From Candidatus Micrarchaeota archaeon (GTDB lineage Archaea; Micrarchaeota; Micrarchaeia; Burarchaeales; JACRGF01), in NCBI GenBank assembly GCA_016212395.1, contig JACRGF010000062.1, positions 5,315-69,314 of the forward strand: a stretch of 64,000 nucleotides of DNA, read 5' to 3'. Positions 6,279 through 58,871 of this stretch are shown piece by piece. The notes below the pieces were generated by a model. That model ran no database searches, was not told where the DNA came from, and saw nothing but the letters and a program-made list of their open reading frames with translations. Position numbers and translations under genes: made by a program. Position 1 is the first letter of the stretch. Each line of letters starts with the position of its first letter.

Positions 6279-6354
6279 AAGAGTAAGATGAGAAAAAACA
6301 AACACGAAACTCGAAACTGCAAAACTCAAAACCACATAGACAAAACAATCTTTT

Positions 6355-10771: not shown

Positions 10772-10867
10772 AAAACCGTCTCGAGTCCACAGTCTTGAGT
10801 CTTGAGAAAAAAATCAAAACGATTCAAAACCACTGCAAAACCCTGAAACTTCAAAACTTCCGAACGT

Positions 10868-12568: not shown

Positions 12569-12632
12569 AAAAACACCTCCAAACAAAACTTCTAAACTTC
12601 AAAACTGAAAACTCCGAACTCAAAACCCCGCT

Positions 12633-18450: not shown

Positions 18451-18471
18451 AACAATCACACAGCAAAACAA

Positions 18472-18736
18472 ACCACCAATTCAAAACTCCAAAACTCCTA
18501 AACTACAAAACCAACGAAACAAAACTACCCCAACAAAACTCCAAAACCAACGAAACAAAACCATTCAAAACTTCTAAACTCCAAAACCACCAATTCAAAA
18601 CTCCAAACTACGAAACCTTAAACCCCAAAACTGCAAAACTTCAAAACCAACGAACCAAAACCACTCGAAACTCCTAAACCACAAAACTCCAAAACTACTA
18701 AACTGCAGAACTTCTAAACTCCGAAACGCCTAAACT
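18472..18736 (-). repeat. 265-nt array of roughly 33 degenerate 8-nt units (plus strand NNNAAAC; transcript sense GTTTNNN)
   Basis: ttcaaaac tccaaaac tcctaaac tacaaaac caacgaaac ... Contains internal higher-order duplicates (ccaccaattcaaaactcc twice, aaaaccaacgaaacaaaac twice). Fills the whole spacer between the helicase and DPCK genes. Confidence 0.85.
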
Positions 18737-20305
18737 TCAAACGAAATCCGCCATGGTGCTCTGGCCTTTCTTGACTGCTTTTTCTTTCTTCAATTTTGAA
18801 GGCAAAGCTTCGTTTTGTGGAGTTTCTCCGCTCATTGTTTTAAGTATTCGCTTCATTTTCGTTTCCTTCGCCCTGCTCGACCAAAAGTATGATTCGTCGC
18901 GCGTTCCTTTTGTAATCAAAATTATCGCCTCGCCAGCCTTCGCGCGCCCAGCCCTGCCTCTTCGCTGGATAGAACGAATTTCGCTTGGAATAGGCTCGTA
19001 GAAAACAACGCAATCCACTTGCGGAATGTCAAGCCCTTCCTCGCCAATCGAGCTCGCGACAAGCACGTTGAACTCGCCCCGCCTGAACGCTTCGATAGTC
19101 TCCTGCTGTTCCTTCTGCGAAACGCCGTCGCGCTTTCCAACAAACTGAAGCGCCTTCACTCCCTCAATTGAATTCAACCGCTCGACAATGCGTTTTATCT
19201 GGTCCCGGTACTGCACGAACACGATGAACGTCTTGCCTTGGCGCGCGCTGATGAGCTCAACGAGTTTCACTATCTTCGGGTGCTCTACAGACAATTTTTC
19301 AGCGTCAGCCAAAAGCGAAATAGTGCGCTCGTCGCTCAACAGCTTCAATACCGCCTTGCTTTTCTCCTCGCGTTCGTTCATGCGCTTGAAAAAATCAAGG
19401 AACGCGCCCACGCTCTGCGTCTCGAGCAGCTCGTGCGCGTGAACAAGGTTGAACAACAGCGCGACGTTCATCATGCCGGGGTATTTCGTTGGCCGCTTGT
19501 CGCGCAAAATGCGCTTGCGCATTTCAATCAACGCCTTCTTCCTCAACGTCTTCACGTTCCCATAAACATACCCGAGATTGCGCAACACGCCCACGCGCTC
19601 TTCAACCATCTCGCCCAAACGCTGCTTAAGCAAAGCATACTCAACAGGAAGCTCGACGAAAACCCACTCGACGTCCAACTGCTTCACGTACTTCGCCACG
19701 TCCTCGTCAGCCTCACTGCGCGCTTCAACATTCGAAATGCCGAGCGCCTTCATCGTCTCCTCAATCTTCTTCCTGCTCCCGCCAGGAGAAGCAGTCAAAG
19801 CCAAAACAACAGCCTTGCTCGCCTTGCACTCGTTGGCAACAAAAGTGTAAGCATAATCGCCAACTGCACGATGGCTCTCGTCAAAAACAACTAATCCGAA
19901 GTCGCTCACGCGCGCAATTCCAGAACGCAAATCATTCTGCACAGTCTGAGGCGTGGCGGAAATAACGCGCGCATTCTTCCAAACAGCCTCGCGGTTTTCA
20001 GGCTTCGTCTCCCCAGTAAGCAAAACAACCTCGCTCTCGGAAAGAAGCATCATTTCAAGCACGCGCACAACATGCTGTTCAGCCAACGGCTTTGTCGGAG
20101 CCATGAACAACACGCGCTTGCCCTCGCGCAAAACAGCATCCATCACAAGCAACGCGACAACAGTTTTCCCCAAGCCAGTAGGCAGCACTACAAGCGAATT
20201 GCCGTTGCGCAAAACATTCCCGGCAATGCTCGACTGGTAATCACGAGGCTGCACAGCACCCGCACGCAGAAACGAATCCGACGCCATAAGCAGAAATTTC
20301 TTCAA
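18737..20305 (-). CDS. Hef/FANCM-type SF2 helicase (helicase domains only, no nuclease domain)
   Basis: PRDYQ...LVVLPTGLGKT (motif I). DESH. TASPG. C-terminal lobe SSIGEEGLDIPQVDCVVFYEP...QRRGRAGR. Confidence 0.85.
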   Translation of the reverse strand: MKKFLLMASDSFLRAGAVQPRDYQSSIAGNVLRNGNSLVVLPTGLGKTVVALLVMDAVLREGKRVLFMAPTKPLAEQHVVRVLEMMLLSESEVVLLTGETKPENREAVWKNARVISATPQTVQNDLRSGIARVSDFGLVVFDESHRAVGDYAYTFVANECKASKAVVLALTASPGGSRKKIEETMKALGISNVEARSEADEDVAKYVKQLDVEWVFVELPVEYALLKQRLGEMVEERVGVLRNLGYVYGNVKTLRKKALIEMRKRILRDKRPTKYPGMMNVALLFNLVHAHELLETQSVGAFLDFFKRMNEREEKSKAVLKLLSDERTISLLADAEKLSVEHPKIVKLVELISARQGKTFIVFVQYRDQIKRIVERLNSIEGVKALQFVGKRDGVSQKEQQETIEAFRRGEFNVLVASSIGEEGLDIPQVDCVVFYEPIPSEIRSIQRRGRAGRAKAGEAIILITKGTRDESYFWSSRAKETKMKRILKTMSGETPQNEALPSKLKKEKAVKKGQSTMADFV

Positions 20306-20455
20306 GACAAAATATAAACATTAATAAGTGAACCCGTAATTAAGCAGTAAACACAGTGCGACCGCTTTTCTTACGAGCCATTGAAAACGTTTTTAAACCT
20401 GAATTAATACTAAGTATGAGCAGGTATGAGGAGGTTGGAAGTCTGGGGTTTGGGA

Positions 20456-20493
20456 GTTTCGGAGTTTAGAAGTTCTGCAGTTTAGTAGTTTTG
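20456..20493. repeat. 38-nt exact inverted copy of 18690-18727
   Basis: gtttcggagtttagaagttctgcagtttagtagttttg is the exact reverse complement of ccaaaactactaaactgcagaacttctaaactccgaaac (minus one terminal base). The pair brackets the helicase gene. Confidence 0.9.
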
Positions 20494-20525
20494 TTTGTTT
20501 AGTTTTGCAGTTTGGGAGTGGTGGC

Positions 20526-30875: not shown

Positions 30876-31010
30876 GGGCCCGTAGCTCAGCTTGGCTAGA
30901 GCGGCTGACTCTTAACAGTATTCAAGTTTTCAGTTCTCAGTTTTGAAGGCTTGACAAGTTTTGCTTTGAGTGAAATCAGTAGGTCGCGCGTTCAAATCGC
31001 GCCGGGCCCG
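30876..31010 (+). tRNA. tRNA-Lys (CUU) with a ~60-nt intron after position 37
   Basis: GGGCCCG-TA-GCTC-AGCTTGGCTA-GAGC-G-GCTGA-CTCTTA. Intron about 30915-30974. Then A-TCAGT-AGGTC-GCGCG-TTCAAAT-CGCGC-CGGGCCC-G. Anticodon CTT at 30911-30913. Confidence 0.85.
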
Positions 31011-31237
31011 TCTCTTTTTTTGGTTTTCAGTTTTGAGGTTTAGAAGTTTTGACTTGCTTTTTCTCTTTTTTTCTCTTTAAGGGAAAAACCCGCTGAAAAT
31101 GCGTGAAACGCAAATTACTATGAGAGTATGTATAATGAATCTGAGAAAAATTTAAATATCCTGACCAGTAAAATGCTTCTCATAGGCCAGTTTTGAAGAG
31201 GAAAAAAAATCGCTGCAAAAAAAGCGGGGGTTGTCTG

Positions 31238-32651: not shown

Positions 32652-33281
32652 ATGAACGCTGACGACGTGAAAAAAGGGACGACTACAGTAGGGCTCACGT
32701 GCTCGGACGGAGTCGTGTTCGCGACAGACCGGCGCGCTTCAATGGGCTACTTTATAGCAAGCAAGGAAGCAAAAAAAATGTTTCTCATAGACGACCACAT
32801 TGCAATAACAGTAGCAGGAATGGTCGCAGACGCGCAAGCACTCGCGCGCATAATGAAAGCAGAAGCACAATTGTACAAGCTCCAGAAAGGCAAGCCGATA
32901 AACGTCGAAGCAGCATGCTCGCTCATGTCCAACATCATGCACCAATACAAGTGGTACCCGTTCCTAGTCCAAATAATAATCGGCGGGCTGGATGAAAAGC
33001 CGAGGATTTTCACGCTTGACGCAGTAGGCGGAGTGACTGAAGAACGATTCGTCTCGACAGGAAGCGGGTCGCCCATGGTCTACGGATTGCTTGAAGAAGC
33101 ATTCAAGGAAGGCAAGCCAGTCAAGGAAAACTTGAAGCTCGCAGTCAAGTGCGTCGCAACAGCAATGAAAAGAGACTGCGCGAGCGGAGACGGCATAGAC
33201 TTGATTTCTATAACAAAACAAGGCCCGAAACAATACTCCGACGACGAAATAAAAAAGATTCTGGAAGACAAAAGCCATTGA
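32652..33281 (+). CDS. psmB: Proteasome subunit beta
   Basis: Propeptide MNADDVKKG followed by the catalytic Thr in TTTVGLTCSDGVVFATDRRASMG. Confidence 0.9.
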   Translation: MNADDVKKGTTTVGLTCSDGVVFATDRRASMGYFIASKEAKKMFLIDDHIAITVAGMVADAQALARIMKAEAQLYKLQKGKPINVEAACSLMSNIMHQYKWYPFLVQIIIGGLDEKPRIFTLDAVGGVTEERFVSTGSGSPMVYGLLEEAFKEGKPVKENLKLAVKCVATAMKRDCASGDGIDLISITKQGPKQYSDDEIKKILEDKSH

Positions 33282-33334: not shown

Positions 33335-33466
33335 GCTATAGCAAACCACGAAAGTAATGCGACAAAAGTCCAATAACTCCGTCTCGTGGTTTGCTTTGAG
33401 TCGACTGCTCAACAACGCGAGGCGTTGTTGAAGTTGCAAACCGCATTACTTATGCGGTTTACAGTA
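33335..33466. repeat. Copy 1 of a ~130-nt three-hairpin repeat element; overlaps the aCPSF1 start codon
   Basis: gcaaaccacga...tcgtggtttgc (11 bp), caacaacgc-gag-gcgttgttg (9 bp), aaaccgcat-tactt-atgcggttt. Near-identical to 46168-46363 apart from a 64-nt insert in the latter. Confidence 0.85.
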
Positions 33467-36400
33467 AAAGAGGTTACAGAGGTTTTAAAGTTGGCTAACA
33501 ACGACATTAATGAAATACAAAAAAAACTCGAAGAAGTCCTGCCCCCAGCATGCGAACTAAGCAAAGTAGAGTTTGAAGGCCCGGACGTTGCAATCTACCT
33601 GAAAAACATCACTGCATTCTACTCAGACGAAAACCTCATAAGAAAAATAGCGAGCAGCCTCAGAAAACGCGTGCTCGTGCGCGCAGACGGAAGCACGCTC
33701 GTGCCGCAGGAAAAGGCGAGAAAGGAAGTGGAAGCGCTAATTCCAGTGGAAGCAGGAGTGCAAAACATCCAGTTCATGGAAGACTTCTGCGAAGTCGCCA
33801 TTGAATCCCTCAAGCCAGGGCTCGTGATTGGAAAGCAGGGAAGCACGCTCAAAAACATTATTCTCAAAACAGGCTGGAGCCCGAAAATACTGAGGACTCC
33901 GACGATGCCATCTGAAACAATCAAAGGAATAAGAGGAAGCCTCTACAAAGAGAGCGAAAACAGGAAAAAATTCCTCAACGCGCTGGGAAAAAAGATTTCA
34001 ACAGCCTCAAGCAAAAGCGATTGGGTGAAAGTAACAGCACTCGGAGGATTCCGCGAAGTCGGGAGAAGCTGCCTCCTCGTGCAAACTCCGAACGACAAAA
34101 TCCTCATAGACTGCGGAGTAAACCCTGAAACGAACGAGGGAACGCGCGCATTCCCGTACTTGACTGCAATGAACATTCCGCTCGACGAACTCGACGCAGT
34201 AATAGTAACCCACGCGCACTTGGACCATTGCCTTGAACCGGACACGCTCGTTGCAATGGCTGACGGCACTTCGAAACCAATTGACGAAGTTGTTGAAGGA
34301 GACGTGCTCGCGAGCGTGGACTTGAAAACCGGGCGCATGGCAGAAGGCAAATGCACTGGCAAGATAAGAACGCGCGCGCACGAGTCGATTGTGGAAATAA
34401 GAACGGAGAACGAAACTCTCCGCGCTTCGCCGAACCACCGCTTTTTCGTAGTTGAAGGCATGCAATTCAAGGAAATCGAGGCGGACAGCCTTAAGCAAGG
34501 AGACGTGGTTGCTGTTCCATGCATCGAACACGCGAGCTTGCCGGCAGCACGACTTCTTGAAAAGCCGAATTACGAAGAGATTGTGGAAATTCCATTTGAA
34601 TTAAAAAAAGCCATTGGCAGTTTCAGATCAGAAAGAGGGTTATCCTCACAGCAAATGTCGACGTTGATAAACAGGTCTGGAAATTACGTACAACAGCTGG
34701 AAACAATGCATGACCACGCAAACACAACAACGCTGAAGCAACTTGCGGAAATAACGGGCGTTGACAAAACAATGGTGAAAGAAACGATTTTCCCTGTAGA
34801 ACTCAACCCAGAGCTCGCCCAAATCGCAGGGTACGTGACAGGAGACGGCCACGCTTCAAGCGATTATTCAGTGCGAGCCACTGACAAAAACGTTGAATGC
34901 CTGGAAGAATACAAAAACGCAGTAATGCACGTGTTCAGCCACAAGGCAGTTATACGCCATCACCCAGACCGCACTAAAAACGCCCACGTGCTTGAAGTGA
35001 ATAATGCAGGCATAAAGCGGTTCCTGGAACTGAACTTTGAAGGCATTTTCGCGCCAAGCAACGAAAAGAGAGTGCCGAGAAAAATATTATCAGCAGAAAA
35101 AGCAGTTATAGCAGCCTACTTGAGAGGGCTTGCAGACGCAGAGGGAAGCGTTACCACCCACATCAAAATCGCGTCGTCAAGCAACAAACTCTTAGAACAA
35201 GCGCAAACGCTTTTCAGAATGCTTGGAATAACCGCAACAATTGCAGACAACGTCGTAAAAATAGAAGCAAAGGCAAGCATGAAACGCTATGCTGAACTCG
35301 TCGGCTTTTCGCATCCTTTGAAGGCAGCCAAGCTGGCTGAAATGACGCGCAGCCAAACAGCAGGAGAAGAAAGAGAAATCACGCCGATAAACGCCGAAGA
35401 CGCGCGCAGCATGCTCACTGAATGCGGATTCATAAGCAGAGCGCGCAGGACAGGCGGAAGCATGAAATCACTGCCTCCTGCAATCCACGAACTCTGCTAT
35501 TACGGAAAACACGCGACAAGAAAAACCGCAATGCAACTCGCACAAACGCTTGAATCCAAGGCGAAAACAGCCGAAAGCGCCCGCAAGCAAGCAAGCCTTA
35601 AAGAAAAAAGGCGTGCGGCAGGGCTTACAATAGCAGAAGTGTGCGAGAGTGCAAGATGCACGCGAGTTCAAGCATGGTACAGGGAAAAAGAAAACCTGAA
35701 AGACAAACTTTGGGAAAAACTGAACGCCTTTCTCGACTCTGCACTCGAAAAAAAAGCAGCCAAATGCAAGGAAACAGCTGAAAAAATCAAGCGCCTGCTC
35801 GCCATGCCAATCAAGTGGCACGCCATAAAAAAAATCGAAAAAAAACAAAACGACTGTGACTATCTCGTCGACATTGAAGTCGAGCCACACCATAATTTCA
35901 TCGCAAACGGGCTCATGGTTCACAACAGCGGCTTCATTCCATACTTGTACGCCTACGGTTACGACGGGCCAGTCTACTGCACTGCGCCAACGCGCGACTT
36001 GATGGCATTGCTTCAATTCGATTATATTGAAGTAGTAAGCAAGAGCGGAGGCAAAGCGCCTTACAACGAAAAACACGTGCGCAAAATGCTGAACAGGTGC
36101 GTAGTCCGCGAGTACGAGGAAGTGACGGACATCACTCCGGAAACAAAACTCACGCTTCACAACGCAGGCCACATTCTCGGAAGCTCGATGGTGCACCTGC
36201 ACATAAGCGAAGGCCTCCACAACCTCGTAATAAGCGGAGACATAAAATACGGGTACACGCAACTATTCGAGCCTGCGAACACGAAATTCCCGAGAATAGA
36301 AACTTTATTCATGGAAAGCACTTACGGAGGCAGGGAAGACATAATGCCACAGCGCCATGAGACAGACTCGCGCCTCGCAGCAGCAATAATGCAAACGCTT

Positions 36401-37087
36401 GCAAACAAAGGCAAAGTGCTCATCCCAGTATTCTCAGTAGGAAGAAGCCAGGAAATAATGCTCGTGCTCGAAGAATTCGCCTCAAAACACCCTGACTTTA
36501 ATTATCCAATTTACTCAGACGGAATGATTCTAGAAGCAAGCGCAATCCACACTGCTTACCCTGAATACTTGAAGCACAACGTCCAACGCAGAGTGCTCAG
36601 CAACAACTCGCCATTCGAAAGCAAAATCTTCGAAGCAGTAAAGAAAAACAGGAAAGACATTGTAGAAGGCGACCCGTGCGTCATCATCGCACCGTCAGGC
36701 ATGATGAGCGGAGGCCCAAGCATAGAATACTTCAAAATGATGGCGGAAAACCCAAACAACCTCCTCGTATTCGTAGGGTACCAATCAGTGCTCTCAATGG
36801 GAAGAAAACTCCAGCGCGGATTAAAAGAAGTCCCAATCATGGGAGAGGACGGAAGAATAAACACGCTCAAAATCAACATGAAAATAGAAACAGTAGACGG
36901 CTTTTCCGGGCACAGCGACAGAGCGCAACTCATCAGCTTCATGAAACACATACGCCCCACGCCGGAAAGAATATTCACAGGCCACGGAGAAGAAACAAAA
37001 TGCGAAGAACTCGCACGCGTAATAAACAGGATAACACACCTCGAAACACGCGCGCCAATGAACCTTGACTCCATAAGGCTGAAATAA
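33452..37087 (+). CDS. aCPSF1 (KH-domain beta-CASP metallo-beta-lactamase RNase, FttA-type) interrupted by an intein
   Basis: N-terminal KH region ([25 protein letters not shown]). HAHLDH split from [26 protein letters not shown] by the insert. C-terminal beta-CASP (MESTYGG, FSGHSD, VFTGHGE). Confidence 0.9.
   Translation: [1211 protein letters not shown]
34229..35926 (+). mobile_element. 566-aa intein with a LAGLIDADG homing-endonuclease domain
   Basis: Starts with Cys ([19 protein letters not shown]). Block B ASPNH. LAGLIDADG motifs [10 protein letters not shown] and [11 protein letters not shown]. Ends [20 protein letters not shown]. In frame: 1698 nt. Confidence 0.85.
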
Positions 37088-37308
37088 AAAAGAAACAGAA
37101 CGAAAGCATACACTAAAAAAAGAAGCAGAAACACTTCACAACAAACAAAAAGACAAAAAAGAAACAAAAACACTCAACAGACAAAAAAAACGCGCGAAAC
37201 AAACAACGCAAAAAAACAGAAACGCTCTGCAACAAAAAAAAAACTCCAAAAAAAGAAAACACGCTCGCAAACGATTTCTCGCGTTATTCAGCCAACGCTT
37301 GCTTTTTC

Positions 37309-37974
37309 TTAAAACCCTAATTCTTCATCAACCAAAATTACCGCCATTCTTCCCTTCACGCACTCAAACTCAGTAATCAAAACCTGCCCGCACATGCGCT
37401 TGAACTCAGGAGCACAACACTTTTCCTCGTTGCACTTTCCACTGAAGCACGGAGTATTATCCCAATTCAAGCGCTTGCAATTCAAGGGAGTAGCGACAGA
37501 ACGCAAACGCTTGAACGCATCATCCAACGAACGAACGAGCTTGTTCCTGCCCACAACAACAATAGTTTTCTTCTTCGCAAAAGCAACTCCAGCAATCCTG
37601 TTACCGAAAGCAGACGCGACAAGCAACCGGCCGTCCTCAACAACAGCATTCGCTGAAGCCAGAAAATAATCAGCATTCGCACCCTCCCTGCTCAAACGAG
37701 CGCGTTCAACAGAATTCAAGGCATTATCCCTATCAAAAACAACAAGCTTTTTTTCTCCCGCGCTCTCCCTCAACCCATCAAGCACGCCGAGCTCAACGAG
37801 AGTCTGAGAACCGCTCCACCCAACACTCGAGTTGCCTTCAATCAAGGAAAAAATTTTCGCGTTCGCTTCAGCCTTGTTCGCACAGAAAAAAAACTCTATT
37901 TGCCGCTTTTCAAAAGCACAAGAAAGCTTTTCAACATCCAAACACGCCACAAAACCACCCAAACAAAACTTCAA
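37309..37974 (-). CDS. LUD-domain (LutB/LutC, DUF162-like) protein
   Basis: GANADYFLASANAVVEDGRLLVASAFGNRIAGVAFAKKKTIVVVGRNKLVRSLDDA. Cys-rich tail CFSGKCNEEKCCAPEFKRMC. Confidence 0.5.
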   Translation of the reverse strand: MKFCLGGFVACLDVEKLSCAFEKRQIEFFFCANKAEANAKIFSLIEGNSSVGWSGSQTLVELGVLDGLRESAGEKKLVVFDRDNALNSVERARLSREGANADYFLASANAVVEDGRLLVASAFGNRIAGVAFAKKKTIVVVGRNKLVRSLDDAFKRLRSVATPLNCKRLNWDNTPCFSGKCNEEKCCAPEFKRMCGQVLITEFECVKGRMAVILVDEELGF

Positions 37975-38002
37975 AACTCCAAGACTGCGAAACCACCCAA
38001 AA

Positions 38003-38797
38003 CTAATGCAAACGACTGAATATTTTGCTTTCTCCAGTTTTATAAACGATTACTGCAACAACAAGCGCAACAAAGTAGCTCGCAACAGTCCCGGCATACA
38101 AGCCAAGCGCAGGGTAAGCGAAACTGACTGCAAGCGCGAAGAAAACAAGCGGAACCAAGCCCGCGAACATGCCCTTGCTCGCGGCACGCGCGAATTTCAA
38201 GCCACTCGAACGAGCCAAAATAAGTATTGAAGAAGAAAACGCTGCAGGAAACATTGCAAACGCTCCACCCAGCAACGGACCACCTGACTTTGAAACAAAA
38301 ACAGCAAAAGCAATCACTGCACCAGCAAAAACAGCGCGGAACAACAACTGCTTGAAGCTAAAGCGAAAACGCGCCTTCTCCTCCCCAACTTTGCGGAGAA
38401 GAAAAAGCGCAACGAAAAAACACGTGAAAAACAACGCGTGCGCCAAAACAGGATCAACAAAACCGAAAGCAATGAAACCCAAAGACAAAGCAAGCCACGC
38501 GACCAACGAACAAAACAATGAAACGATAGCGCCAAGCTTTTCAGACAAGCGCACAAACAGCAAAATAAAAACAATGCACGCAACCGAACTCGCAGGAGCA
38601 AAAGAAGCAGCCTGCGCGGCAAACTCCGGAGAATGCGCCCACCCGATAAAGAAAAAACTGACAAGAGAAGTAGAAGGCAACGCGACAAGCATTCCACCCA
38701 AACGCGAGCCGAACCGCTCAGCCAACAGAGTCTGGGCGGAAACAGCAAAACCGCCTAAAACAAACGACAAAACCAAGCCAGAAACAAACACGTCCAT
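38003..38797 (-). CDS. Integral membrane protein with internal duplication, unknown function
   Basis: About 8 TM segments. The two halves share G-G-x-(A/L)-x-x-(L/F)-P-(S/A) patterns (GGMLVALPSTS, GGAFAMFPAAF). Confidence 0.5.
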   Translation of the reverse strand: MDVFVSGLVLSFVLGGFAVSAQTLLAERFGSRLGGMLVALPSTSLVSFFFIGWAHSPEFAAQAASFAPASSVACIVFILLFVRLSEKLGAIVSLFCSLVAWLALSLGFIAFGFVDPVLAHALFFTCFFVALFLLRKVGEEKARFRFSFKQLLFRAVFAGAVIAFAVFVSKSGGPLLGGAFAMFPAAFSSSILILARSSGLKFARAASKGMFAGLVPLVFFALAVSFAYPALGLYAGTVASYFVALVVAVIVYKTGESKIFSRLH

Positions 38798-38845
38798 GAC
38801 GGTTTAATAAGAGTTTGGCTTTAAAATAATGAGTGGTAGAGAAAA

Positions 38846-39280
38846 ATGAAAGACGAATGCAAAACAAAAGGAGAATGCATATTCTGCAAAATAATAAAAA
38901 AAGAAATTCCGGCAAACATAGTCTTCGAAAACGAGCACGCGCTCTCATTCCTCGACATAAACCCGGCAAACAAAGGCCACGCGCTCATAATACCGAAAAA
39001 ACACGCAGAAACAACGCTCGACTTGAACGAAAAAGAACTCAAAGAACTAGTAGTAGTAGTCCTGAAAGTCGCGAAAGCAGTCAAAAAAACAACAGGAAGC
39101 CAAGCATTCAACATAATACAAAACGACGGAAAACTCGCAGGACAACTCGTAATGCACGCGCACTTCCACATAGTGCCAAGATTCGAAAACGACGGCCTCG
39201 ACTACAGGACGAAAAGAACGCAGTACGCGCACGGAGAAGCAAGCGAACTCGCAAAACAAATAAACAAAGCAATAGAATAG
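38846..39280 (+). CDS. HIT-family (histidine triad) hydrolase
   Basis: CIFCKII, NPANKGHALIIPKKH, HAHFHIVPR triad. Confidence 0.85.
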   Translation: MKDECKTKGECIFCKIIKKEIPANIVFENEHALSFLDINPANKGHALIIPKKHAETTLDLNEKELKELVVVVLKVAKAVKKTTGSQAFNIIQNDGKLAGQLVMHAHFHIVPRFENDGLDYRTKRTQYAHGEASELAKQINKAIE

Positions 39281-39287
39281 CATTTAC

Positions 39288-39522
39288 GCCTCCATAGTAT
39301 AGTTTGGATAGAATGCGGGCCTCCGGTGACTTTTTTTCTTTCTTTTCGAGCAACAAAAACGTTTCGACGTTTTTGTGCTCCACAAAACGCTTTGCGTTTT
39401 GTCGGACGAACCGAAAATAAAGAAAAAACCTCAACTAAAAAAGAAAGAAAAAGTAAATGAAAAGAAAAAAAAAAGAAAGTTGGGGAAAGCCTGAGACAGG
39501 GGTTCAAATCCCCTTGGAGGCG
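39288..39522 (+). tRNA. tRNA-Arg (CCG) with a ~161-nt intron after position 37
   Basis: Acceptor GCCTCCA/TGGAGGC. Anticodon stem CGGGC/GCCTG. Loop CTCCGG with CCG at 39323-39325. T-arm AGGGG-TTCAAAT-CCCCT. Discriminator G. The D-stem is weak (A12/A23 mismatch). Intron about 39327-39487. Confidence 0.7.
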
Positions 39523-39530
39523 TTTCAAAC

Positions 39531-40229
39531 TTATTTTTTCAAAAGCGCTATCGTCGTGATTATTGCCACAGTGATTATTCCAAGCAACGCTGAAACAAGC
39601 ACGACCATGTACTCAGTCGGAATAACTCCAGTCAAAGAAGCGGAATTTGCAGTAGTGAGCTTCAACGGCTTTGCTGAAAGCGACGCGACAGCCAACTGGC
39701 TTGCCTGAGCGAAATCGTTCTTCCCGAAAGCAGCAACAGCCTGCGAAAGCTGGTTTTCAACACCAGACGCATCCTCGCCAGCCTCCTTCTTCGCAGTTAA
39801 CTCTGCTTCAGCATTCTTGATAAGCTTGGAAGCAAGCGCTGAACTCGGAGCAGAAAGCGTTTCAACTGAAAGCAACTGCTGCTCCCCAGAAGCAGGATTG
39901 TAGCTCGGCGCAGAGCAAACACACTTCCAATAATGAAGCCCGCTCTTCACGTTGCCTAAAACAACAGAATTCCTCTCGCCACTCACGTCAAAAGACTTGC
40001 CGTCCAAAACCAGCGCACAATCAGCGTTTTGAATGCGCGCTCCACTCGCTTGAGAGTAATAATCGCAATAAAAAGCAACAGGCTCACCCGCAAGAACAGG
40101 CGACGCCGGAGAAGTGGACTGCTCCACGAAAGACTGCCCAGGAATAACATTCACGGTGACAGACACTTGCGCGAAAGAAAACAAAGAAAACACTAACAAC
40201 AAAGCCAAAAGTTTGAGTGGGGTCGACAT
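39531..40229 (-). CDS. Secreted protein with C-terminal membrane anchor, unknown function
   Basis: N-terminal signal-like LKLLALLLVFSLFSFAQV. C-terminal TM VVLVSALLGIITVAIITTIALLKK. Confidence 0.55.
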   Translation of the reverse strand: MSTPLKLLALLLVFSLFSFAQVSVTVNVIPGQSFVEQSTSPASPVLAGEPVAFYCDYYSQASGARIQNADCALVLDGKSFDVSGERNSVVLGNVKSGLHYWKCVCSAPSYNPASGEQQLLSVETLSAPSSALASKLIKNAEAELTAKKEAGEDASGVENQLSQAVAAFGKNDFAQASQLAVASLSAKPLKLTTANSASLTGVIPTEYMVVLVSALLGIITVAIITTIALLKK

Positions 40230-40361
40230 AAGCTACATTAAATCATTCCGTATTTAAAAATATAACGGAACAGCAAAAACAAAGGCAAACGCACAAAAAC
40301 AAAAAAAAGAAAAGCAACAACGCTCGCTACAACTGAAATACAGCCGTTAATCGTGATTTTT

Positions 40362-41168
40362 ATGAAGAAAGTAAAACAATTCTACGAAGAATATCCCTAC
40401 CCGCTTCTGCCAATAGAAAAGAAAAGCGACTTGACAGGAAAAATGCACGCGAACGTCATGCGAAACATCCTCGAAACCGCGAAACTCGACACTCCTAAAC
40501 TCCGAGACAAGCACATTCTCGACGCAGGATGCGGGACAGGAGAGAAAGCACTCTACTTCGCTTTGCACGGAGCAAAAGTGAAAGCATTCGACTTTTCAAG
40601 CGCTTCAATCGAAAGAGCAAAAGCAAACGCGAAGAAATTCAAATTGAAAATAGATTTTGAATGCGCTGATTTTGAAGAGTGGAATGAGGAAAAAAAGTTT
40701 GACCACGTTTTCTGCCTCGGAGTGCTCCACCACACTGAAAAACCAAGGGAGTACTTCTCGAAGCTGTGCAGGAGAGTAAAGAAGGGAGGAACAATCACAA
40801 TAGGCTTGTACAACTTCTGGGGGAGAATGCAGCACCGCATTCACAGGAAAATAATCCAATTCCTCAGCGGGGAAAGCTCTAGGAAAAAAATGGATTACGT
40901 GAGCGAAAAAATTTACAAGAGAGAATTCAGCTCTCTGCACGAGACGGCGTTCGTCGCAGACAAGTACGCAAACCCGCACGAAAGCTACCACACGCTCGAG
41001 CAGACTGCGAGGTGGCTTGAAGAAGAAGGGTTTGAAGCAATAGGAGTTTACCCGAAAACGAAAGGAAGCAAGCTGTTCACGCAACTCAAGTGGCTGTTCA
41101 AAAAAAACGGGTTCTACATCGCAAGCGGAAGAAAAAAACGAGCGCGCCAAGGACGCGAAAGTTATTAA
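40362..41168 (+). CDS. Class I SAM-dependent methyltransferase
   Basis: ILDAGCGTGEKALYFALHGAKVKAFDFS (motif I), VFCLGVLHH. Confidence 0.8.
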   Translation: MKKVKQFYEEYPYPLLPIEKKSDLTGKMHANVMRNILETAKLDTPKLRDKHILDAGCGTGEKALYFALHGAKVKAFDFSSASIERAKANAKKFKLKIDFECADFEEWNEEKKFDHVFCLGVLHHTEKPREYFSKLCRRVKKGGTITIGLYNFWGRMQHRIHRKIIQFLSGESSRKKMDYVSEKIYKREFSSLHETAFVADKYANPHESYHTLEQTARWLEEEGFEAIGVYPKTKGSKLFTQLKWLFKKNGFYIASGRKKRARQGRESY

Positions 41169-41244
41169 ACTAAAAAACAACGTCGGTACCGACGGAGTGT
41201 TTATAAATGTTTTACTGCAAAGAAGTTTTTCAGAGGTGATTTTT

Positions 41245-41460
41245 GTGGGCCAGAGAATTGGAAAAGAAAAAGTCTCCCGTGAAGACGGGTATCTCTATTT
41301 TGTTGGGAAGGACGGCTGCGTATGGAGAGCGCCGATGAAGAACAACAAGAAGGGAAGCAAGAAAAAAGTCGGAACTGAGAAAATCAGCAAAGAATCCGGC
41401 TACATGTACTATGTCGACAAGGCAGGGTACGTTGCAAAAGCGAAACTGAAGAACGCATAA
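41245..41460 (+). CDS. Small basic protein with two internal repeats
   Basis: GKEKVSREDGYLYFVGKDGCVWRA and GTEKISKESGYMYYVDKAGYVAKA. GTG at 41245 follows agaggtga. Confidence 0.5.
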   Translation: MGQRIGKEKVSREDGYLYFVGKDGCVWRAPMKNNKKGSKKKVGTEKISKESGYMYYVDKAGYVAKAKLKNA

Positions 41461-41622
41461 AGTGTATTCTTCAAATTTCTCTTTTTTTCCCTTTTTTCAT
41501 TTTTTTATCCCTCTTTCTCAGTTGTTTTCCTGTTCGCCCGCTGTTTTCAGCCTGCAGGCAAGCCTTAAATACAGGTTTTTGCATAATGTATTCATATAGG
41601 CTGAGTTGAAAGGGTTGAGTTT

Positions 41623-42522
41623 ATGAACAGGCACATGATGAAGGTATCAACACGAGGGCAGGGAGGCGTTCGCGAGAAGGACGTTGGCAGAAGGCATTAC
41701 GCTGGAGAATTTGCATTGCGCGTTTTCACTATGGCAGGCAGGCAGGAAAATAGCGCGTTGTGGGGCTTGTTTTCAGAGAAGAATGAGGAGTTGATCGGCG
41801 CGATTGCAAAGGCTGGAAACTGCAAGTCTAAGAAAGCAGTTCCAATACTGCACGGGTTGCTTTTTCACGAGAAGACGAGCATCAGGATTTTAACAGCAAC
41901 AACTCTCGCAGGCATTGGAGAGCCGAGTTCAACGTTTTTCTTATTGCGCGCGCTTTTATTAGACAACGACGTGCAGGTGAAGCGCGAGATTGCACGCATT
42001 GTTGGCGAGTTTTCGGAAAAGCTTAAAGAACAAGAGAAACGCACGATTTCAGAAGATGCGGCGAAACAGCGTGAAGAGCGGGAGAGATTAATGGCACTGT
42101 TGGCTAAATCGCAAGGCACGCAAGTCGTGATTGGAGTTGAAAACGCTGCGACATTGAATTACAGGGATTTCGTGGTGGCGCGCTTGTGGGGAATAATTAA
42201 AGACACGAACGAGGACAAGTTCGTGCGCATGTATGCAATGAACTCGCTTGAAAAGTTCGCAGTGCATAGTAGGCTTGGAAGCACGCCCGCGATGGGAATA
42301 GCGGGAATAGCGTGCATTATTGCTGCAGGCATAGCAAATAACGCGAGCGACGAGTTCGAAGTCAGGGTGAGGGCAGTAGAGTTTCTTTCAACGTTTAAGG
42401 AAGGGTTTGGAAAAGAAGGGTTGGAACAACTCGCCAGCAAGCGCGACACTGCTGGCTTGAATTCAGAAGAAAGGCAACTCTGCAATTTCGCGTGGAACAG
42501 TTTAGGCGTACAGGGCAGTTGA
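41623..42522 (+). CDS. HEAT/PBS-lyase-like repeat protein
   Basis: KAVPILHGLLFHEKTSIRILTATTLAGIGEPSSTFFLLRALLLDNDVQVKREIARIVG. Further helical repeats follow. Confidence 0.55.
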   Translation: MNRHMMKVSTRGQGGVREKDVGRRHYAGEFALRVFTMAGRQENSALWGLFSEKNEELIGAIAKAGNCKSKKAVPILHGLLFHEKTSIRILTATTLAGIGEPSSTFFLLRALLLDNDVQVKREIARIVGEFSEKLKEQEKRTISEDAAKQREERERLMALLAKSQGTQVVIGVENAATLNYRDFVVARLWGIIKDTNEDKFVRMYAMNSLEKFAVHSRLGSTPAMGIAGIACIIAAGIANNASDEFEVRVRAVEFLSTFKEGFGKEGLEQLASKRDTAGLNSEERQLCNFAWNSLGVQGS

Positions 42523-42617
42523 TGCTTGCAAGAGGGGAATTGCATGGCGTGGGAAAAAAACAAGGAGCATAGCGAAAAGCAAGGCACTCGCGCGGAAAGG
42601 AGGAGGGGACGCGCGTG

Positions 42618-45143
42618 ATGGGCGTGACTATCAACGCTCGGCTGCCTGAACAGCATGCTTACACTGTAAACTATGCCGCGACGAACGCGCGAAGGGAGCA
42701 GTTGAAGCGGCTTGCAGTATTGCGCGCAGTAGTAGATAGTTTGAGCGAAAAAGACTTGCCTGTTGGCGCGTATAAAGTCAAGTTGGCCCCGCGCTCGCGC
42801 GTTCAAGTAAAAGGCCCTCACGAAGACTTGCTGAGGTTCAGGGTGAAAAGCCCCGGCTTTCTTGTTTATTCATTGAAAACAACAGGTTCAGGCGCAGTAA
42901 AAAGCATGAGAAAATACGGCAAGGCAACAGTCGTAAGAGACCAGGAAGTAGTGTCAGGCTACAGTTTTTTGAAAGAATTAATAAAGACGGATGAAACAGT
43001 AAAAAAATTGCGCAGTACTGCACAAAGTGAAGCAGTGAAAACGCAAGCAGAGTTGATGGAGAGCGTAGTCGCTGCTTTTAAGGAAAAACACGCTTTGCGG
43101 GCGCTCGTCTTGTCGTTCATAGAACAAACGCATTCTACACGCTATTCCAGAGACTTGTTTCTAAGGCTCTTGAGAGACATAAACGGGATTATAGGGCAGA
43201 TTAGAAAAATGAATTTCTCGCGTGGCGAGAGCTACGATTTCGGGGCGAATGCAAACAAGTTTGCCGGAAACTCTTGGCCTGTTTCAGTAGAAGAAGCAAA
43301 GACTCTCATAAGCGCGTGCACGCTTGAAGCAAAACAACGCTTGAAGCAGGCGACAAGAGAGTATTTGAGCTTGGAGAGAAGGCATCTGGAAGTCGGCGCG
43401 CTGGAGTACCAGATGACGGAAAGCGTTCTCGATGCAGTGCGCGGGCTTGAAGCAGCATTGAAGCTGATCGGGCAACAGCAGGACAATATACACCAAGAGG
43501 CTATTGAACGCAATGCGCTTCGCGCGTGGGAAAAGTTTTCCAGGTTGTGCGACGCAGTAGTGACTATGGAAAAAAACCTGCGCGTGCTGAAAGGAAGGAA
43601 AATCGAATCGTTTGAAGACGGGTTCGTTGCATTATGCCAAGTCGCAGAATTTCGCGCGACGATATTGAAGCTTATCTACGAAACGTGCAATGATTTGAAG
43701 CGATGCTTTCCCGACGCTCCAACCGCACACGTTACGACTCCGCTAGAAAAAGTCTTCTTCGAACTCGTGCGCACGGACGCGAGCAAAGAAAACGTGTTTT
43801 GGAGCGCTTTAGTGAAAGAAGTTGGCGAGAGCGTGAAAAGCACGAGAAAAGACAAGAGCCCAGAGAAAAAAGAACAGAGAAAACAATGGGAAACGACAAA
43901 AAAGAATGTAGAAGCGTACATGAGGCACTTGACGGAATTGACGAAGCTTGAAGGCGAGCGAAAAAAAGCACTGCAGACAATAGAAGACGCTGAAGACGCG
44001 TACAAGAAAGAAAAATCCGACGCAGAAGCGCGATTGCGCGACAAGATAAGGGAGCTTGCGGATATCGCGCCAATAGAAGCAGACGCGATAAGCGCAGGCC
44101 ACGACGCGATCAAAGCGCACGTCAGGTACAGGCTCGGCGACTGGATGCACGACGCAGACAATTACTTGACCGGAGAAAAACTCGTGGAAGCAATGCGCAG
44201 GAGAATATTCTCGAGCCGCCTTGAAGCACAAAACGCAAAGCCAATAGTTGTCTACGGAAAACAGTTAAGCGAATACGAAAGCCAATTCGAAAAGTGGGCA
44301 AAAAAATTCATAGAAATTAACGAAAGGATATTCGAAGCGTGCGGAAAACTCGGAGTTGCAAACAAAGACGTGGCGAGGCAAGTCGAGAGAGTAGGGTTTC
44401 TTGAAGCAAACGAGCACGACATGCAATTGAACAGCAAAAGCATAGACCGGCTTTTGAAAAGCGGTTCAAGCGGAAAAACCCTGGCGTTCACTTACGAAGA
44501 GCGCGTCGAAGAAAACGAGTTGGTAATAATGCTTGAAAACACTGACGCAAAAATTGGAGAGTTGGAAGTACGGATACCGCGCGCAGTGCTGAGAGAAGAC
44601 GATTTCATAGGAGAAAGAGAAGACATTGAAAGAGCAGTCGGAGAACGGTTTGATACGGACAGTGCAGTCATGCACGCGATAGAATGGCTTGAAAAAGAGG
44701 ATGCGCAGCAAGAGGCAAACGCGCGAGCGAAATTAGCAGAGTACGAAGAAGGCAAAATGAGCGCAGGCTACTGGGCAGTTGCAACCTACCTGGCGCGAAC
44801 TCTTGAAAAACACGTTGAGGACGAAGTGAACACGCAAAGCCCGCACACCTCATTATACCACGCAGGCTACTGCCGGCAACAACCACTCGAAGGCGTTGTT
44901 TACGTGCACCAAGGAACGAAATACGAAAACACGCCGAAACTCTTAGGCAACATGGGCGAAAATAGTTTTAGAACGCATATCGAACAAAAACTCGGAACCA
45001 ACTATACTGCGATTTTGAAAAGAGAACGCGCATTCAGGGAACGGCACGCGATGCACGCAATGGCAGATGAAATGCACGTACTCACGCCGTACATTGTTTT
45101 AAGAGAAATAACCGCGCTTGCAGAACAGCTGGCAAAAGCATAG
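42618..45143 (+). CDS. 841-aa (842-aa track ORF) helical hypothetical protein
   Basis: Long uninterrupted ORF, no motif recognised. Charged coiled-coil-like middle (KKEQRKQWETTKKNVEAYMRHLTELTKLEGERKKALQTIEDAEDAYKKEK). ggaggagggg SD. Confidence 0.6.
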   Translation: MGVTINARLPEQHAYTVNYAATNARREQLKRLAVLRAVVDSLSEKDLPVGAYKVKLAPRSRVQVKGPHEDLLRFRVKSPGFLVYSLKTTGSGAVKSMRKYGKATVVRDQEVVSGYSFLKELIKTDETVKKLRSTAQSEAVKTQAELMESVVAAFKEKHALRALVLSFIEQTHSTRYSRDLFLRLLRDINGIIGQIRKMNFSRGESYDFGANANKFAGNSWPVSVEEAKTLISACTLEAKQRLKQATREYLSLERRHLEVGALEYQMTESVLDAVRGLEAALKLIGQQQDNIHQEAIERNALRAWEKFSRLCDAVVTMEKNLRVLKGRKIESFEDGFVALCQVAEFRATILKLIYETCNDLKRCFPDAPTAHVTTPLEKVFFELVRTDASKENVFWSALVKEVGESVKSTRKDKSPEKKEQRKQWETTKKNVEAYMRHLTELTKLEGERKKALQTIEDAEDAYKKEKSDAEARLRDKIRELADIAPIEADAISAGHDAIKAHVRYRLGDWMHDADNYLTGEKLVEAMRRRIFSSRLEAQNAKPIVVYGKQLSEYESQFEKWAKKFIEINERIFEACGKLGVANKDVARQVERVGFLEANEHDMQLNSKSIDRLLKSGSSGKTLAFTYEERVEENELVIMLENTDAKIGELEVRIPRAVLREDDFIGEREDIERAVGERFDTDSAVMHAIEWLEKEDAQQEANARAKLAEYEEGKMSAGYWAVATYLARTLEKHVEDEVNTQSPHTSLYHAGYCRQQPLEGVVYVHQGTKYENTPKLLGNMGENSFRTHIEQKLGTNYTAILKRERAFRERHAMHAMADEMHVLTPYIVLREITALAEQLAKA

Positions 45144-45192
45144 GCGGAAATGAGAACAACAATTAAATGGTTTACCGTATCAATATGTGAGC

Positions 45193-45690
45193 ATGAGTGA
45201 TGAAACTGTTTCTGGAAAGAAAGCGATTGCTTCGCGTGGAATTCCGTCGAGCGAAGCACTTTACCTGCCGAGGCATGACTCGGATGAGTTGAGAAAATTT
45301 CAAGAGCAGGACGAGAGCGCTACGCGCAACGCTTGGAGCCTCGAGGAAGTCGTCAACTTTGTTTTCCCGAAGAAATACCAGTTGAAGTACAACGAGGCAG
45401 CAGTCGCGTTCACGCAATTGCTGAAGGAAAAACTTGTTTTGAACGGGAGCGACATCAACGAATTCGTGTCAACGAAAGGCATTTCGAAAGCAACGTTCTA
45501 CAACCGCGTGCTTCCGCGCTTGAAGCGAGTGGGAATGGTGAAAGTAGAGCGCGAAACACTCGTTGCACTTGAAAGCAAGCGCAAGTACAGGCCAATGCGC
45601 ATCTCGCTCTCGAAAACATTCGGAAACTACTTGACGAAAATAGGAGACTCGTGGCTCGCGCTCGTGGACGACGCGAGAAGCAGAAAATAG
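45193..45690 (+). CDS. Hypothetical protein with a probable winged-helix segment
   Basis: GISKATFYNRVLPRLKRVGMVKVERE. Confidence 0.5.
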   Translation: MSDETVSGKKAIASRGIPSSEALYLPRHDSDELRKFQEQDESATRNAWSLEEVVNFVFPKKYQLKYNEAAVAFTQLLKEKLVLNGSDINEFVSTKGISKATFYNRVLPRLKRVGMVKVERETLVALESKRKYRPMRISLSKTFGNYLTKIGDSWLALVDDARSRK

Positions 45691-45784
45691 CCAAAAACCT
45701 TCAAAAAACCCGAATTAGAAAGATATAAATATGGAGTTGACGGATAATCGTCTCGTGGGAGAAGGCAGGAATGGGTGAAAGCAG

Positions 45785-46123
45785 ATGGTCAAAAAGAAGA
45801 TTAAGTTAGAGCCGCGCTGGCTAGACGACAGAATCTCGAGGACAATGCTTGCAGACAGCTTGGCGCTCGCAGCAACGCAACGGAACATTAACATGGACTA
45901 CGACATGGAAGAACGCATCAGGAAACTCGAGGACAGGTTCCAACGCGAAGTAAGAAAAGAAAAACGCGGAAAAAGCGGAACGAAAAAGGCAAAAAAGCCA
46001 GCAAAAGCAAAAAAAATCAAGATACCGGCGAAAATAAAGCTGAAAAAAACTGGAAAAACATGCAAAAAACCGAAAATAAAAAAGAAAACTGCTAAAGCAA
46101 AGAAAGCGAAAAAGAAACGCTGA
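45785..46123 (+). CDS. Small protein with a Lys/Ala-rich histone-H1-like tail
   Basis: C-terminal KRGKSGTKKAKKPAKAKKIKIPAKIKLKKTGKTCKKPKIKKKTAKAKKAKKKR. Confidence 0.5.
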   Translation: MVKKKIKLEPRWLDDRISRTMLADSLALAATQRNINMDYDMEERIRKLEDRFQREVRKEKRGKSGTKKAKKPAKAKKIKIPAKIKLKKTGKTCKKPKIKKKTAKAKKAKKKR

Positions 46124-46167
46124 AAAAACAACTAGTTCTAGGAAAAAAACGCGGATTCTGAAAAAAA

Positions 46168-46363
46168 GCTATAGCAAACCACGAAAGTAATGCGATAAAA
46201 GTCTAATAACTCGTTCTCGTGGTTTGCTTTGAGTCGACTGATGTCGACACAGTCGACTGCTGTTGACTTGCCGGCATTTCGGCCGCAGTCAAAATCGTCG
46301 ACTGCTCAACAACGCGAGGCGTTGTTGAAGTTGTAAACCGCATTACTTATGCAGTTTACAGTA
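46168..46363. repeat. Copy 2 of the three-hairpin repeat element, carrying a 64-nt internal insert
   Basis: Same flanking hairpins as 33335-33466. The insert sits at the palindromic gtcgactg site and repeats gtcgactg three times. Confidence 0.85.
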
Positions 46364-46435: not shown

Positions 46436-46606
46436 TTAGTGAACTACTGCTATGGGGATGACGTTCTTTTCGAACTCGGCGAACGCGAGCCTTACGGGGT
46501 TTAACGCATCACCGCTTACCTCAACTAGAGGCGGAGCTCCGAGCGAAAGCTGCAAAGCCCTCGCGCCGATAATCCTCGCCTTTTCGTACCTGTTTATTTC
46601 CACCAC
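46436..46606 (-). CDS. rpoK: DNA-directed RNA polymerase subunit K (Rpo6)
   Basis: Translated by hand: VVEINRYEKARIIGARALQLSLGAPPLVEVSGDALNPVRLAFAEFEKNVIPIAVVH. The RYEKARIIGARALQ core is diagnostic. GTG start after aggtgg. Below the ORF-track length cut-off. Confidence 0.85.
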   Translation of the reverse strand: MVEINRYEKARIIGARALQLSLGAPPLVEVSGDALNPVRLAFAEFEKNVIPIAVVH

Positions 46607-50921: not shown

Positions 50922-52217
50922 GTGGAATTAGAGTTTTTTGGAGGGGCAGGGGAAGTAGGCAGGAATTGCTTCATGGTCTCTGAAGGCAGAGACGACCTCA
51001 TGCTCGACTGCGGAGTAAAGCTCGGTGAAGTGGAGGAACACCCGCTCCTCTCGCCTGAAGACATTCACCGCGTTCGGCGCATAGCAATATCGCACACGCA
51101 CTTAGACCACATTGGCTTTCTCCCGTACATGCTCAAGAAAGGATGCAAAGCGCCAATTTACTGCACGAAGCCAACGCGGGACATGACGCAACTGCTCTTG
51201 TCAGACTACCAGCGCATTGGAAGAGGAAGAAAAATTACAACGAAAGACGTTGAACGAGTGATGAGCGCGTGCAATATTGTGGAGTACGGGGAGAAAGTGT
51301 GCGACGGCATGACGTTCTCGTTCCACAACGCAGGCCATATTCTCGGAAGCGCGATGGTGCTCGTTGAAGGCGAACGCAAGAAACTGCTTTACTCTGCAGA
51401 CGTGAACATGCGCGGCACGAAACTGCTTGACGCCGCGAGGACGGGGTTGGAAGCAGAAGTGCTTATTTTAGAGTGCACTTACGGAGGGAAGGAAGACAAG
51501 CTGCCTGCAGTGAAAACCGCTTCAAACGAACTCGCCGAAGCAATAAACCAAACGATAATTGAAGGCGGAAGCGTGCTCATCCCGACATTCGCAGTTGGCA
51601 GGGGGCAGGAAATTCTGCTCACGCTTGACGCATACATGCGCTCTGGCTTGCTTGAGAAAGTGCCGATTTTCATTGACGGAATGATAGTGCGCGCGAACCG
51701 CATCTACCGCCACAATATTCTAAGCGCGCGCGACGAAATACAGAAAAGCATTCTAGTAAGTGAATACGACCCGTTCAAAAGCCCGTTCTTCCACCAAAGC
51801 GAGCGCAAGGACAGGAGCGACGTGCTCGAACAACAATGCATAATCGTCTCTACGAGCGGAATGCTCACAGGCGGGCCTGTGCTCGGGTACTTGAAAGCAC
51901 TCGCAGACAACAAGCGCAACAAACTCCTTCTTGTCGGCTACCAAGCGGAAGGAACACTCGGAAGAAAACTCTTGAGCGGAGAAAAGAAAATAATAATAGA
52001 CAAAGAGGAAGTCGACGTGGAAATGAGCGTGGGGCAAGTGCCGTTCTCAGCGCACAGCGACCACCAGTCGCTCCTCCAGCTCGCCAACTCCACGAAAGAG
52101 CTGAAAAAAGTGTTCCTCGTGCACGGCGACCCGCACAAAATAGAAGACATGCGCGCGGACTTGGAAAAAAAATACGAAGTAATCGTGCCAAAAAACGGGG
52201 AAGTGCACGCGCTGTAA
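50922..52217 (+). CDS. Beta-CASP metallo-beta-lactamase RNase without KH domains (aCPSF2-like)
   Basis: [32 protein letters not shown], LVHGD. Confidence 0.85.
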   Translation: [431 protein letters not shown]

Positions 52218-52230
52218 AACACGAGAAGAG

Positions 52231-52294
52231 TGTTTACAGAATGTAAACAAAACGTTTATAAAACATAAACAGCATGTTTACAGCATGCAAACAC
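52231..52294. promoter_or_regulatory. Three operator-like inverted repeats spaced ~22 nt apart upstream of and overlapping the MNT start
   Basis: tgtttaca-gaa-tgtaaaca (52231-52249). gtttat-aaaac-ataaac (52254-52270). tgtttaca-gca-tgcaaaca (52276-52294). Confidence 0.55.
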
Positions 52295-53233: not shown

Positions 53234-53377
53234 ATAATGCACGAAGAAAAAATCAAACAAAACAGAAAATATACGAAAGAAAAAAAACTGCAAACTGAAC
53301 ACGCAAAACTGAAAACTCAAAACCATCCAAAACCTCTAAACTACAAAACATCTAAACCCAAGACACTAGACTGAAGA

Positions 53378-58771: not shown

Positions 58772-58871
58772 AACAAATTAACTCACGAGATACTCGCGCG
58801 CACAACAACACAAACTCATCATGTGGAAAAAAAAACAACAATTCAAAACTTCTAAACTCCGAAACGCTTAT

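Follow-up and report, generated by a model that had tools for sequence, protein, structure and literature searches.

In the 64-kb window (the whole stretch of DNA that was analysed), the gene for the proteasome beta subunit is followed by the intein-bearing gene for aCPSF1/FttA, and the spacer between them holds one copy (copy 1) of a short, hairpin-rich repeat. The other copy (copy 2) is found in the same orientation 12.8 kb away, between a plus-strand gene (45785-46123) and the convergent rpoK gene (Table 1). The two copies are approximately 95% identical (6 substitutions in about 130 aligned nt), in agreement with the initial annotation, which had reported them as near-identical and had placed copy 2 about 70 nt from rpoK; the distance measured from the rpoK stop codon (46436) is 72 nt. 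Homology between the window copies starts at 33335 and 46168 (GC), or at TATAGC (33337 and 46170) when related elements on other contigs are used for comparison, so that the left boundary given previously is shifted to the latter positions; it ends at 33466 and 46363, and similarity between the two copies ceases exactly at the element ends. No third copy was found in the 64-kb window with blastn-short and nhmmer, and the copies directly seen in this genome are these two.

Table 1. Coordinates of the repeat, its parts and neighbouring features in the window.
Feature	Coordinates	Strand	Remarks
Proteasome beta-subunit gene	32652..33281	+	conserved upstream neighbour of aCPSF1
Copy 1, short form, 130 nt, TATAGC...ACAGTA	33337..33466	+	proteasome-beta/aCPSF1 spacer; boundary via related elements
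5' terminal inverted repeat, copy 1, TATAGCAAACCACGAAAGTAATGCG	33337..33361	+	motif invariant in all related elements
Hairpin 1	33340..33395		12-bp arms 33340-33351/33384-33395; 32-nt loop, distal part variable
Hairpin 2	33409..33431		10-bp arms TCAACAACGC / GCGTTGTTGA
Hairpin 3	33435..33463		12-nt arms, one C:A (+) or G:U (-) mismatch
3' terminal inverted repeat, copy 1, reverse complement TACTGTAAACCGCATAAGTAATGCG	33442..33466	-	holds ATG 33452-33454
GAGGT motifs	33470-33474 and 33479-33483		upstream of TTG 33491
aCPSF1/FttA gene	33491..37087	+	intein-bearing; from likely ancestral start TTG 33491
Copy 2, long form, 194 nt	46170..46363	+	between convergent genes
5' terminal inverted repeat, copy 2	46170..46194	+
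64-nt block, copy 2 only	46241..46304		8-nt direct repeats at both edges
3' terminal inverted repeat, copy 2	46339..46363	-
rpoK	46436..46606	-	RNA polymerase Rpb6/omega family
8-nt-period arrays	18470-18750, 20441-20524, 6307-6333, 6604-6641, 10836-10865, 12555-12626, 31023-31068, 37964-38006, 53313-53370, 58829-58870		intergenic

The long form is distinguished from the short form by a 64-nt block with direct repeats of GTCGACTG at both edges. Altogether GTCGACTG is present three times in copy 2; the block overlaps a 10-nt tandem array (GTCGACTGAT, 3.7 repeats, 46233-46268), and the rest of it (46269-46296) contains a small hairpin. The block and its three reiterations had been described as an insert nested in copy 2, and both are present as described, but nesting is doubtful because the block is partly a local 10-nt reiteration; the loss of sequence from copy 1 by slippage, or a local expansion within copy 2, fits better than a foreign nested element. 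The forms of the element, which measure 130 and 194 nt in the window and 107 nt on other contigs, stay below the approximate 500-bp limit of MITEs and are without coding capacity, as is usual for such elements. A minus-strand, ATG-initiated frame is common to both window copies, its register thrown off by the 64-nt block, and searches of a collection of 5.8 billion proteins with peptides translated in all six frames, from the window element and from the 107-nt variant, gave no match.

The ends of the element were compared by aligning the first 25 nt with the reverse complement of the last 25 nt, anchored at the ends, with 20,000 shuffles as the control. The number of matching positions was 19/25 in copy 1, 18/25 in copy 2 and 19-20/25 in three related elements (p<=5e-5 for each), and each of the five complete copies has terminal inverted repeats exactly where the repeated unit begins and ends, as expected of a MITE. 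Over its whole length, the element can also be aligned with its own reverse complement (nhmmer E=2.4e-4 and 4e-8). At both ends of each copy the termini (approximately 25 nt, imperfect) are built on TA-TAGCAAACC(A/G)C..AAGTAATGCG, of which AAGTAATGCG is complementary to CGCATTACTT, and the terminal motif of the element family is TATAGCAAACCRCRAAAGTAATGCG. The complementarity between the loop of hairpin 1 and hairpin 3 that had been noticed previously is therefore real, but what had been proposed as an alternative fold is identified as the imperfect pair of terminal inverted repeats, since the termini match in inverted orientation and are anchored at the very ends. Three strong hairpins were confirmed, with arms of 12, 10 and 12, and so was the single substitution per copy in hairpin 3 that makes a C:A mismatch on the plus strand and a G:U pair on the minus strand. 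Compared to dinucleotide shuffles, the z-scores of folding are -5.8 for the plus strand, -7.4 for the minus strand and -8.0 for copy 2. The hairpins are a consequence of the inverted terminal motifs: in hairpin 1 the 5' terminus pairs with an inverted copy, inside the element, of its own first 14 nt, and hairpin 3 is the 3' terminus folded on itself.

Pfam domains confirmed that the gene downstream of copy 1 is FttA/aCPSF1 interrupted by an intein. The ATG within copy 1 that had been taken for the aCPSF1 start is in frame and would extend the protein by 13 residues, but the N-termini of homologues and the GAGGT motifs point to the TTG at 33491 as the likely start. The best relatives of the N-terminal region have 72% and 68% identity (named matches include Ca. 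Anstonellaceae, Norongarragalinales and Micrarchaeota), and the two nearest homologues, which start MNSNNDIQKK and MANANNEIQKK, align with TTG 33491 (M-ANNDINEIQKK), not with ATG 33452. In the DNA of the homologues GGTTTT is followed by the start codon, and the window has GGTTTT at 33481-33486, four bases before TTG 33491. A core of at least 4 nt of GGAGGTGA is present 4-17 nt upstream of 12 of the 23 confident genes in the window compared to 11% of random positions; GAGGT occurs twice before TTG 33491, and no such motif precedes ATG 33452. Thus, the ancestral start of aCPSF1 is probably TTG 33491 and not ATG 33452, and the ATG of the element would give only an optional in-frame extension. The intein itself, of approximately 560 residues, contains domains of the LAGLIDADG homing-endonuclease and helix-turn-helix types; it is located directly after the HAHLDH metal-binding motif and is absent from the nearest of the aligned homologues. 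Elsewhere in the window (50922-52217, 52285-53233), the Pfam annotations of a Logan contig show a second beta-CASP/metallo-beta-lactamase gene, an aCPSF2-like paralogue, beside a nucleotidyltransferase/HEPN pair.

The adjacency of the proteasome-beta and aCPSF1 genes was assessed at five loci, namely the window and four related contigs. The spacers of the four relatives are 42, 58, 72 and 72 nt long and the motif is absent from all of them, whereas the spacer in the window, from the proteasome stop codon to TTG 33491, is 209 nt long and would be 81 nt long minus the element with one TA kept. Because the spacers of the relatives are short and motif-free and that of the window is 209 nt, the element is interpreted, from this comparison of spacers, as having inserted, in the lineage of the window, between two genes whose adjacency is conserved. 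Presence and absence at an orthologous site, which is a mark of MITEs, is thereby seen at family-level divergence (the aCPSF1 proteins of the relatives are approximately 50-72% identical), at which the empty sites show the absence of the element and not its exact insertion point.

One scan each of genome and metagenome collections with the degenerate terminal motif yielded short elements only, at five loci that are all on Micrarchaeota-type contigs, two of them named Candidatus Micrarchaeota MAGs, with L004 and L007 being the same locus. An element of 107 nt is present at three distinct loci: between a convergent ACT-domain gene and a membrane-protein gene (L004/L007), upstream of a DUF59-type gene (L005), and upstream of a divergent gene for a Glu/Leu dehydrogenase, at a distance of approximately 75 nt (L006). 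The remaining locus (L003) has a degenerate fragment of the shared terminus. The 107-nt elements open with 26 nt identical to the window copies (TATAGCAAACCACGAAAGTAATGCGA), close with GCTATA, and have inverted termini of 26 nt with 20/26 matching; they have the same hairpin-1 stem as the window copies but another hairpin-1 loop and another second hairpin, hairpins 2 and 3 of the window being replaced by unrelated sequence in the 107-nt lineage. The GC content of the host contigs is 41-44%, compared to 48% in the window, and so the related elements belong to different lineages. At every related locus, homology to the other copies begins exactly at TATAGC and the flanks are unrelated; the bases before TATAGC are GGC, AGC, TGC, AAT, AAT and ACT, with no conserved 4-5-nt target on the left. 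No match was found in viral contigs scanned with the terminal motif and with hairpin 2, or in plasmid and phage records searched with copy 2 (blastn).

Target-site duplications had been proposed as a check on mobility. Each of the five complete copies has TA on either side, which is consistent with such a duplication, but the TA could equally be element sequence. Two of the 107-nt elements have TCAAAT directly 5' and NNAGTAAA directly 3' (L005 1282-1287 and 1395-1405; L006 on the minus strand) and the third has neither; these shared flanks could represent a target preference or a slightly longer unit of a sub-family. At L005, an ATG-initiated frame (1271-1684) is open across the whole 107-nt element into the DUF59 gene. 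The same frame is open in all three 107-nt copies, and since there is no such protein in the protein collection, it is probably due to chance.

In Logan, short-read contigs of the same organism, which match the window over 12,862 nt with 0 mismatches, break off inside the element, and one of them spans exactly the interval between the copies (33424-46285). In the window, 31-mers common to both copies start only at 33400-33406 and 46297-46303, which accounts for the contig end at 46304. At k=31, the other three of the four ends (33365, 33424, 46285) fall in sequence that occurs once in the window, and they therefore imply that the sample contains further sequences with at least 31 nt in common with copy 1 and with the 64-nt block of copy 2. 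By the logic of the assembly graph, as distinct from a direct count, this suggests that there are more copies elsewhere, some of them with the 64-nt block, so that the long form would not be unique to copy 2. An outward walk with Logan contigs from the genes of the window encountered no new copies.

The best explanation, with a probability of approximately 0.75, is that the feature is a MITE, of a new family but of a well-known kind, and thus non-coding mobile DNA. A MITE-like element had been one of the candidates named in the initial annotation, and it is favoured by the terminal inverted repeats, the sharp boundary at the shared terminus, the element-free spacers of the relatives and the assembly breaks inside the element. 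The approximately 95% identity of copies at unrelated intergenic sites points to recent duplication. A transposase encoded elsewhere in the genome would recognize the termini and move the element, and the TA flanks would fit a target duplication of the IS630/Tc1-mariner or IS5-subgroup type. The interior would be dispensable and modular, with a 130-nt version, a 194-nt version with the reiterated GTCGACTG block, and a 107-nt version with a different interior. Copy 1 is predicted to have landed in the short proteasome-beta/aCPSF1 spacer, 25 nt upstream of the ancestral TTG, bringing with it an in-frame ATG and three hairpins that would be part of any read-through transcript, and copy 2 to have landed between convergent genes; any effect of the element on expression would be a putative by-product. 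No transposase or autonomous partner was found in the window or in 15 fetched loci, nor was an IS630-family partner with matching termini identified among them. Inverted repeats of 53 nt (approximately 18737-20305) were considered as the ends of a partner insertion sequence and rejected, the gene between them encoding a DEAD-box helicase and not a transposase.

The main rival to a MITE is a unit of another mobile type, either an IS200/IS605-derived PATE or a REP/BIME-like unit, in which a Y1 (HUH) transposase would recognize subterminal hairpins. Strong subterminal hairpins are present at both ends, stems 1 and 3 are alike (GCAAACCACG and GCAAACCGCA), target duplication is unproven, and GTAG is found just before the second palindrome in the 107-nt elements, but the non-palindromic AAGTAATGCG is truly inverted at the two ends, an arrangement not predicted by same-strand recognition of the IS200/IS605 type. 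PATE-like and REP-like units would have same-strand subterminal hairpins, a fixed left target and no terminal inverted repeats, a combination that the element does not show; hairpin 1 has a variable loop of 32 nt, the left flanks have no conserved 4-5-nt target, and the window contains neither a TnpA nor a TnpB gene. Because the non-palindromic terminus is inverted and the left flanks vary, transposition of this type is disfavoured, and we regard it as unlikely. That the two copies are instead the direct-repeat ends of an inserted island or segmental duplication of 12.8 kb would agree with their spacing and common orientation, but the adjacency of proteasome-beta and aCPSF1 across the left copy is conserved in the four relatives, from which it follows that the interval is not foreign; moreover, the interval contains housekeeping genes and no integrase or transposase, and similarity halts exactly at the element ends. 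A composite island is accordingly rejected as next to impossible.

A function as RNA had also been proposed. In one version, the repeats would be paralogous genes for a structured, three-hairpin ncRNA that acts in trans, for which the very stable folding of both strands, the partial conservation of sequence across Micrarchaeota lineages and one compensatory pair in the related elements could be adduced. A comparison with Rfam and an examination of compensatory substitutions, both suggested for such an RNA, gave it no positive support. There was no match to Rfam at the element at the gathering score, and at E<=10 there was only noise far below gathering. Among five sequences from two lineages, 12 of the 14 pairs of hairpin 1 are invariant, none is changed on both sides, and one is changed on one side, giving G:T on the plus strand; judged from this alignment, the conservation in hairpin 1 is of sequence and not of pairing. 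An invariant stem with a freely drifting loop is the pattern expected of a sequence recognized by a protein, not of an RNA helix. The compensatory pair, in which A-T is changed to G-C, belongs to the second hairpin of the three 107-nt elements; in so small a set of sequences it hints at selection on pairing, but template switching in a quasi-palindrome could produce the same change. The replacement of hairpins 2 and 3 by unrelated sequence in the other lineage and the presence of the 64-nt block in one copy and not in the other are also contrary to an ncRNA, as are the varied positions and orientations of the copies relative to neighbouring genes, and no promoter or terminator was identified. 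A minus-strand RNA had been favoured on account of the two transitions in hairpin 3, but these carry no weight because the variable hairpin-1 pair is G:T on the plus strand in a related element, so that the strand-informative substitutions conflict, two for the minus strand and one for the plus strand. Genes for a trans-acting RNA are therefore considered improbable. Inspected by eye as candidate H/ACA or C/D box sRNAs, the hairpins have no pseudouridylation pocket, K-turn or box motifs, and this identification was discarded.

In another version, copy 1 would be a cis regulator of aCPSF1, either through a minus-strand antisense RNA over the start codon or as a selected structure in the 5' leader, consistent with its location immediately upstream of the gene for a termination factor and with the in-frame ATG 33452 in the 3' arm of hairpin 3. 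The antisense proposal is weakened by the likely start at TTG 33491, which the homologue N-termini and the ribosome-binding motif indicate and which is 25 nt outside the element. The same element is also downstream of rpoK, and related ones are beside unrelated genes; its absence from this locus in four relatives means that the control of aCPSF1 does not include it as a conserved component, and such regulation is very improbable. A combination of mobility and function, in which the element spreads as a MITE and has been co-opted as an RNA structure, copy 1 being part of a proteasome-beta/aCPSF1 co-transcript, is a long shot comparable to the trans-acting RNA. Hairpin 3 would then mask the ATG of the element, the three hairpins might set the relative expression of aCPSF1 or the choice of its N-terminus, and the copies beside rpoK and other genes might serve as processing or stability sites. 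If so, it would be the first case of MITE-based post-transcriptional control in DPANN archaea.

As a MITE, the element most closely resembles in form the Correia elements (CREE/NEMIS) of Neisseria, which were the first MITE family in bacteria and have inverted repeats of approximately 26 nt, TA and two size classes. Both are non-coding, intergenic and approximately 100-200 nt long; both have terminal inverted repeats of about 26 nt with TA at each end, here a candidate target duplication; and both come in a longer and a shorter form, the difference being an internal block (approximately 50 nt in Correia elements). Correia elements are often just upstream of genes and co-transcribed as hairpins, and copy 1 is similarly upstream of aCPSF1; Correia and ERIC elements act as processing or stability sites in bacteria. 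There is no sequence similarity between the two, the host here is an archaeon, and Correia elements exceed 100 copies, compared to two within the 64-kb window. Correia elements have been described as 204 bp long, inserted close to genes and cleaved by RNase III at their inverted termini (PMC10969869). The same review describes archaeal MITEs as small, non-autonomous, intergenic elements with inverted termini that are thought to be moved in trans by resident insertion sequences, known in Sulfolobus, Halobacterium, Haloquadratum and Desulfurococcus, and includes no DPANN lineage in its list of hosts (PMC10969869). The SM1-SM4 elements of Sulfolobus and the MITEs of Halobacterium and Haloquadratum are, like the element described here, small and bounded by inverted termini in archaeal intergenic regions, but for those families the partner insertion sequences have been identified and each genome has 25-44 copies, whereas no partner was identified here, and their hosts differ from this small-genome DPANN archaeon. 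PATEs derived from IS200/IS605 and REP/BIME units are likewise short, hairpin-rich, intergenic repeats, but without true terminal inverted repeats and with strand-specific recognition of hairpins and a fixed tetra- or pentanucleotide target, in contrast to the inverted termini and variable flanks seen here. A full-text literature search found no report of a MITE in Micrarchaeota; the kind of element is thus ordinary, and it is apparently undescribed in this group.

Interpreted as mobile DNA, the pair of hairpin-rich repeats is explained and a false lead for a regulatory RNA is removed, along with a correction of the likely start codon of aCPSF1/FttA in this genome. Small-genome Micrarchaeota would have a family of non-autonomous transposons that is active or was so recently, and its terminal motif, conserved across lineages, offers a handle for finding the transposase. 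The element also causes short-read assemblies of these organisms to break at predictable places.

Other features of the window include intergenic arrays of a unit with an 8-nt period, (R)AAACTNN or NNAGTTT(Y) on the other strand, with 27 matches to AAACTNNNRAACTNNNRAAC compared to 0.36 expected. These could be terminator-like or could be upstream binding arrays. The two largest lie on either side of the DEAD-box helicase gene, where they form arms of 53 nt with 91% complementarity, and are not a transposon. A tandem duplication of 84 nt (63298-63452, with 71-nt copies 93% identical) is within a minus-strand ORF of 852 aa (61368-63926) that has no Pfam match. A tRNA predicted with Rfam (51.8 bits, 30876-31010) extends over 135 nt, which implies an intron; ARAGORN predicted none in the window. 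Between two of the 8-nt arrays is a near-perfect inverted repeat (6472-6531) with 28-nt arms and a 4-nt loop, inside which Logan contigs from two samples both begin, at 6520.
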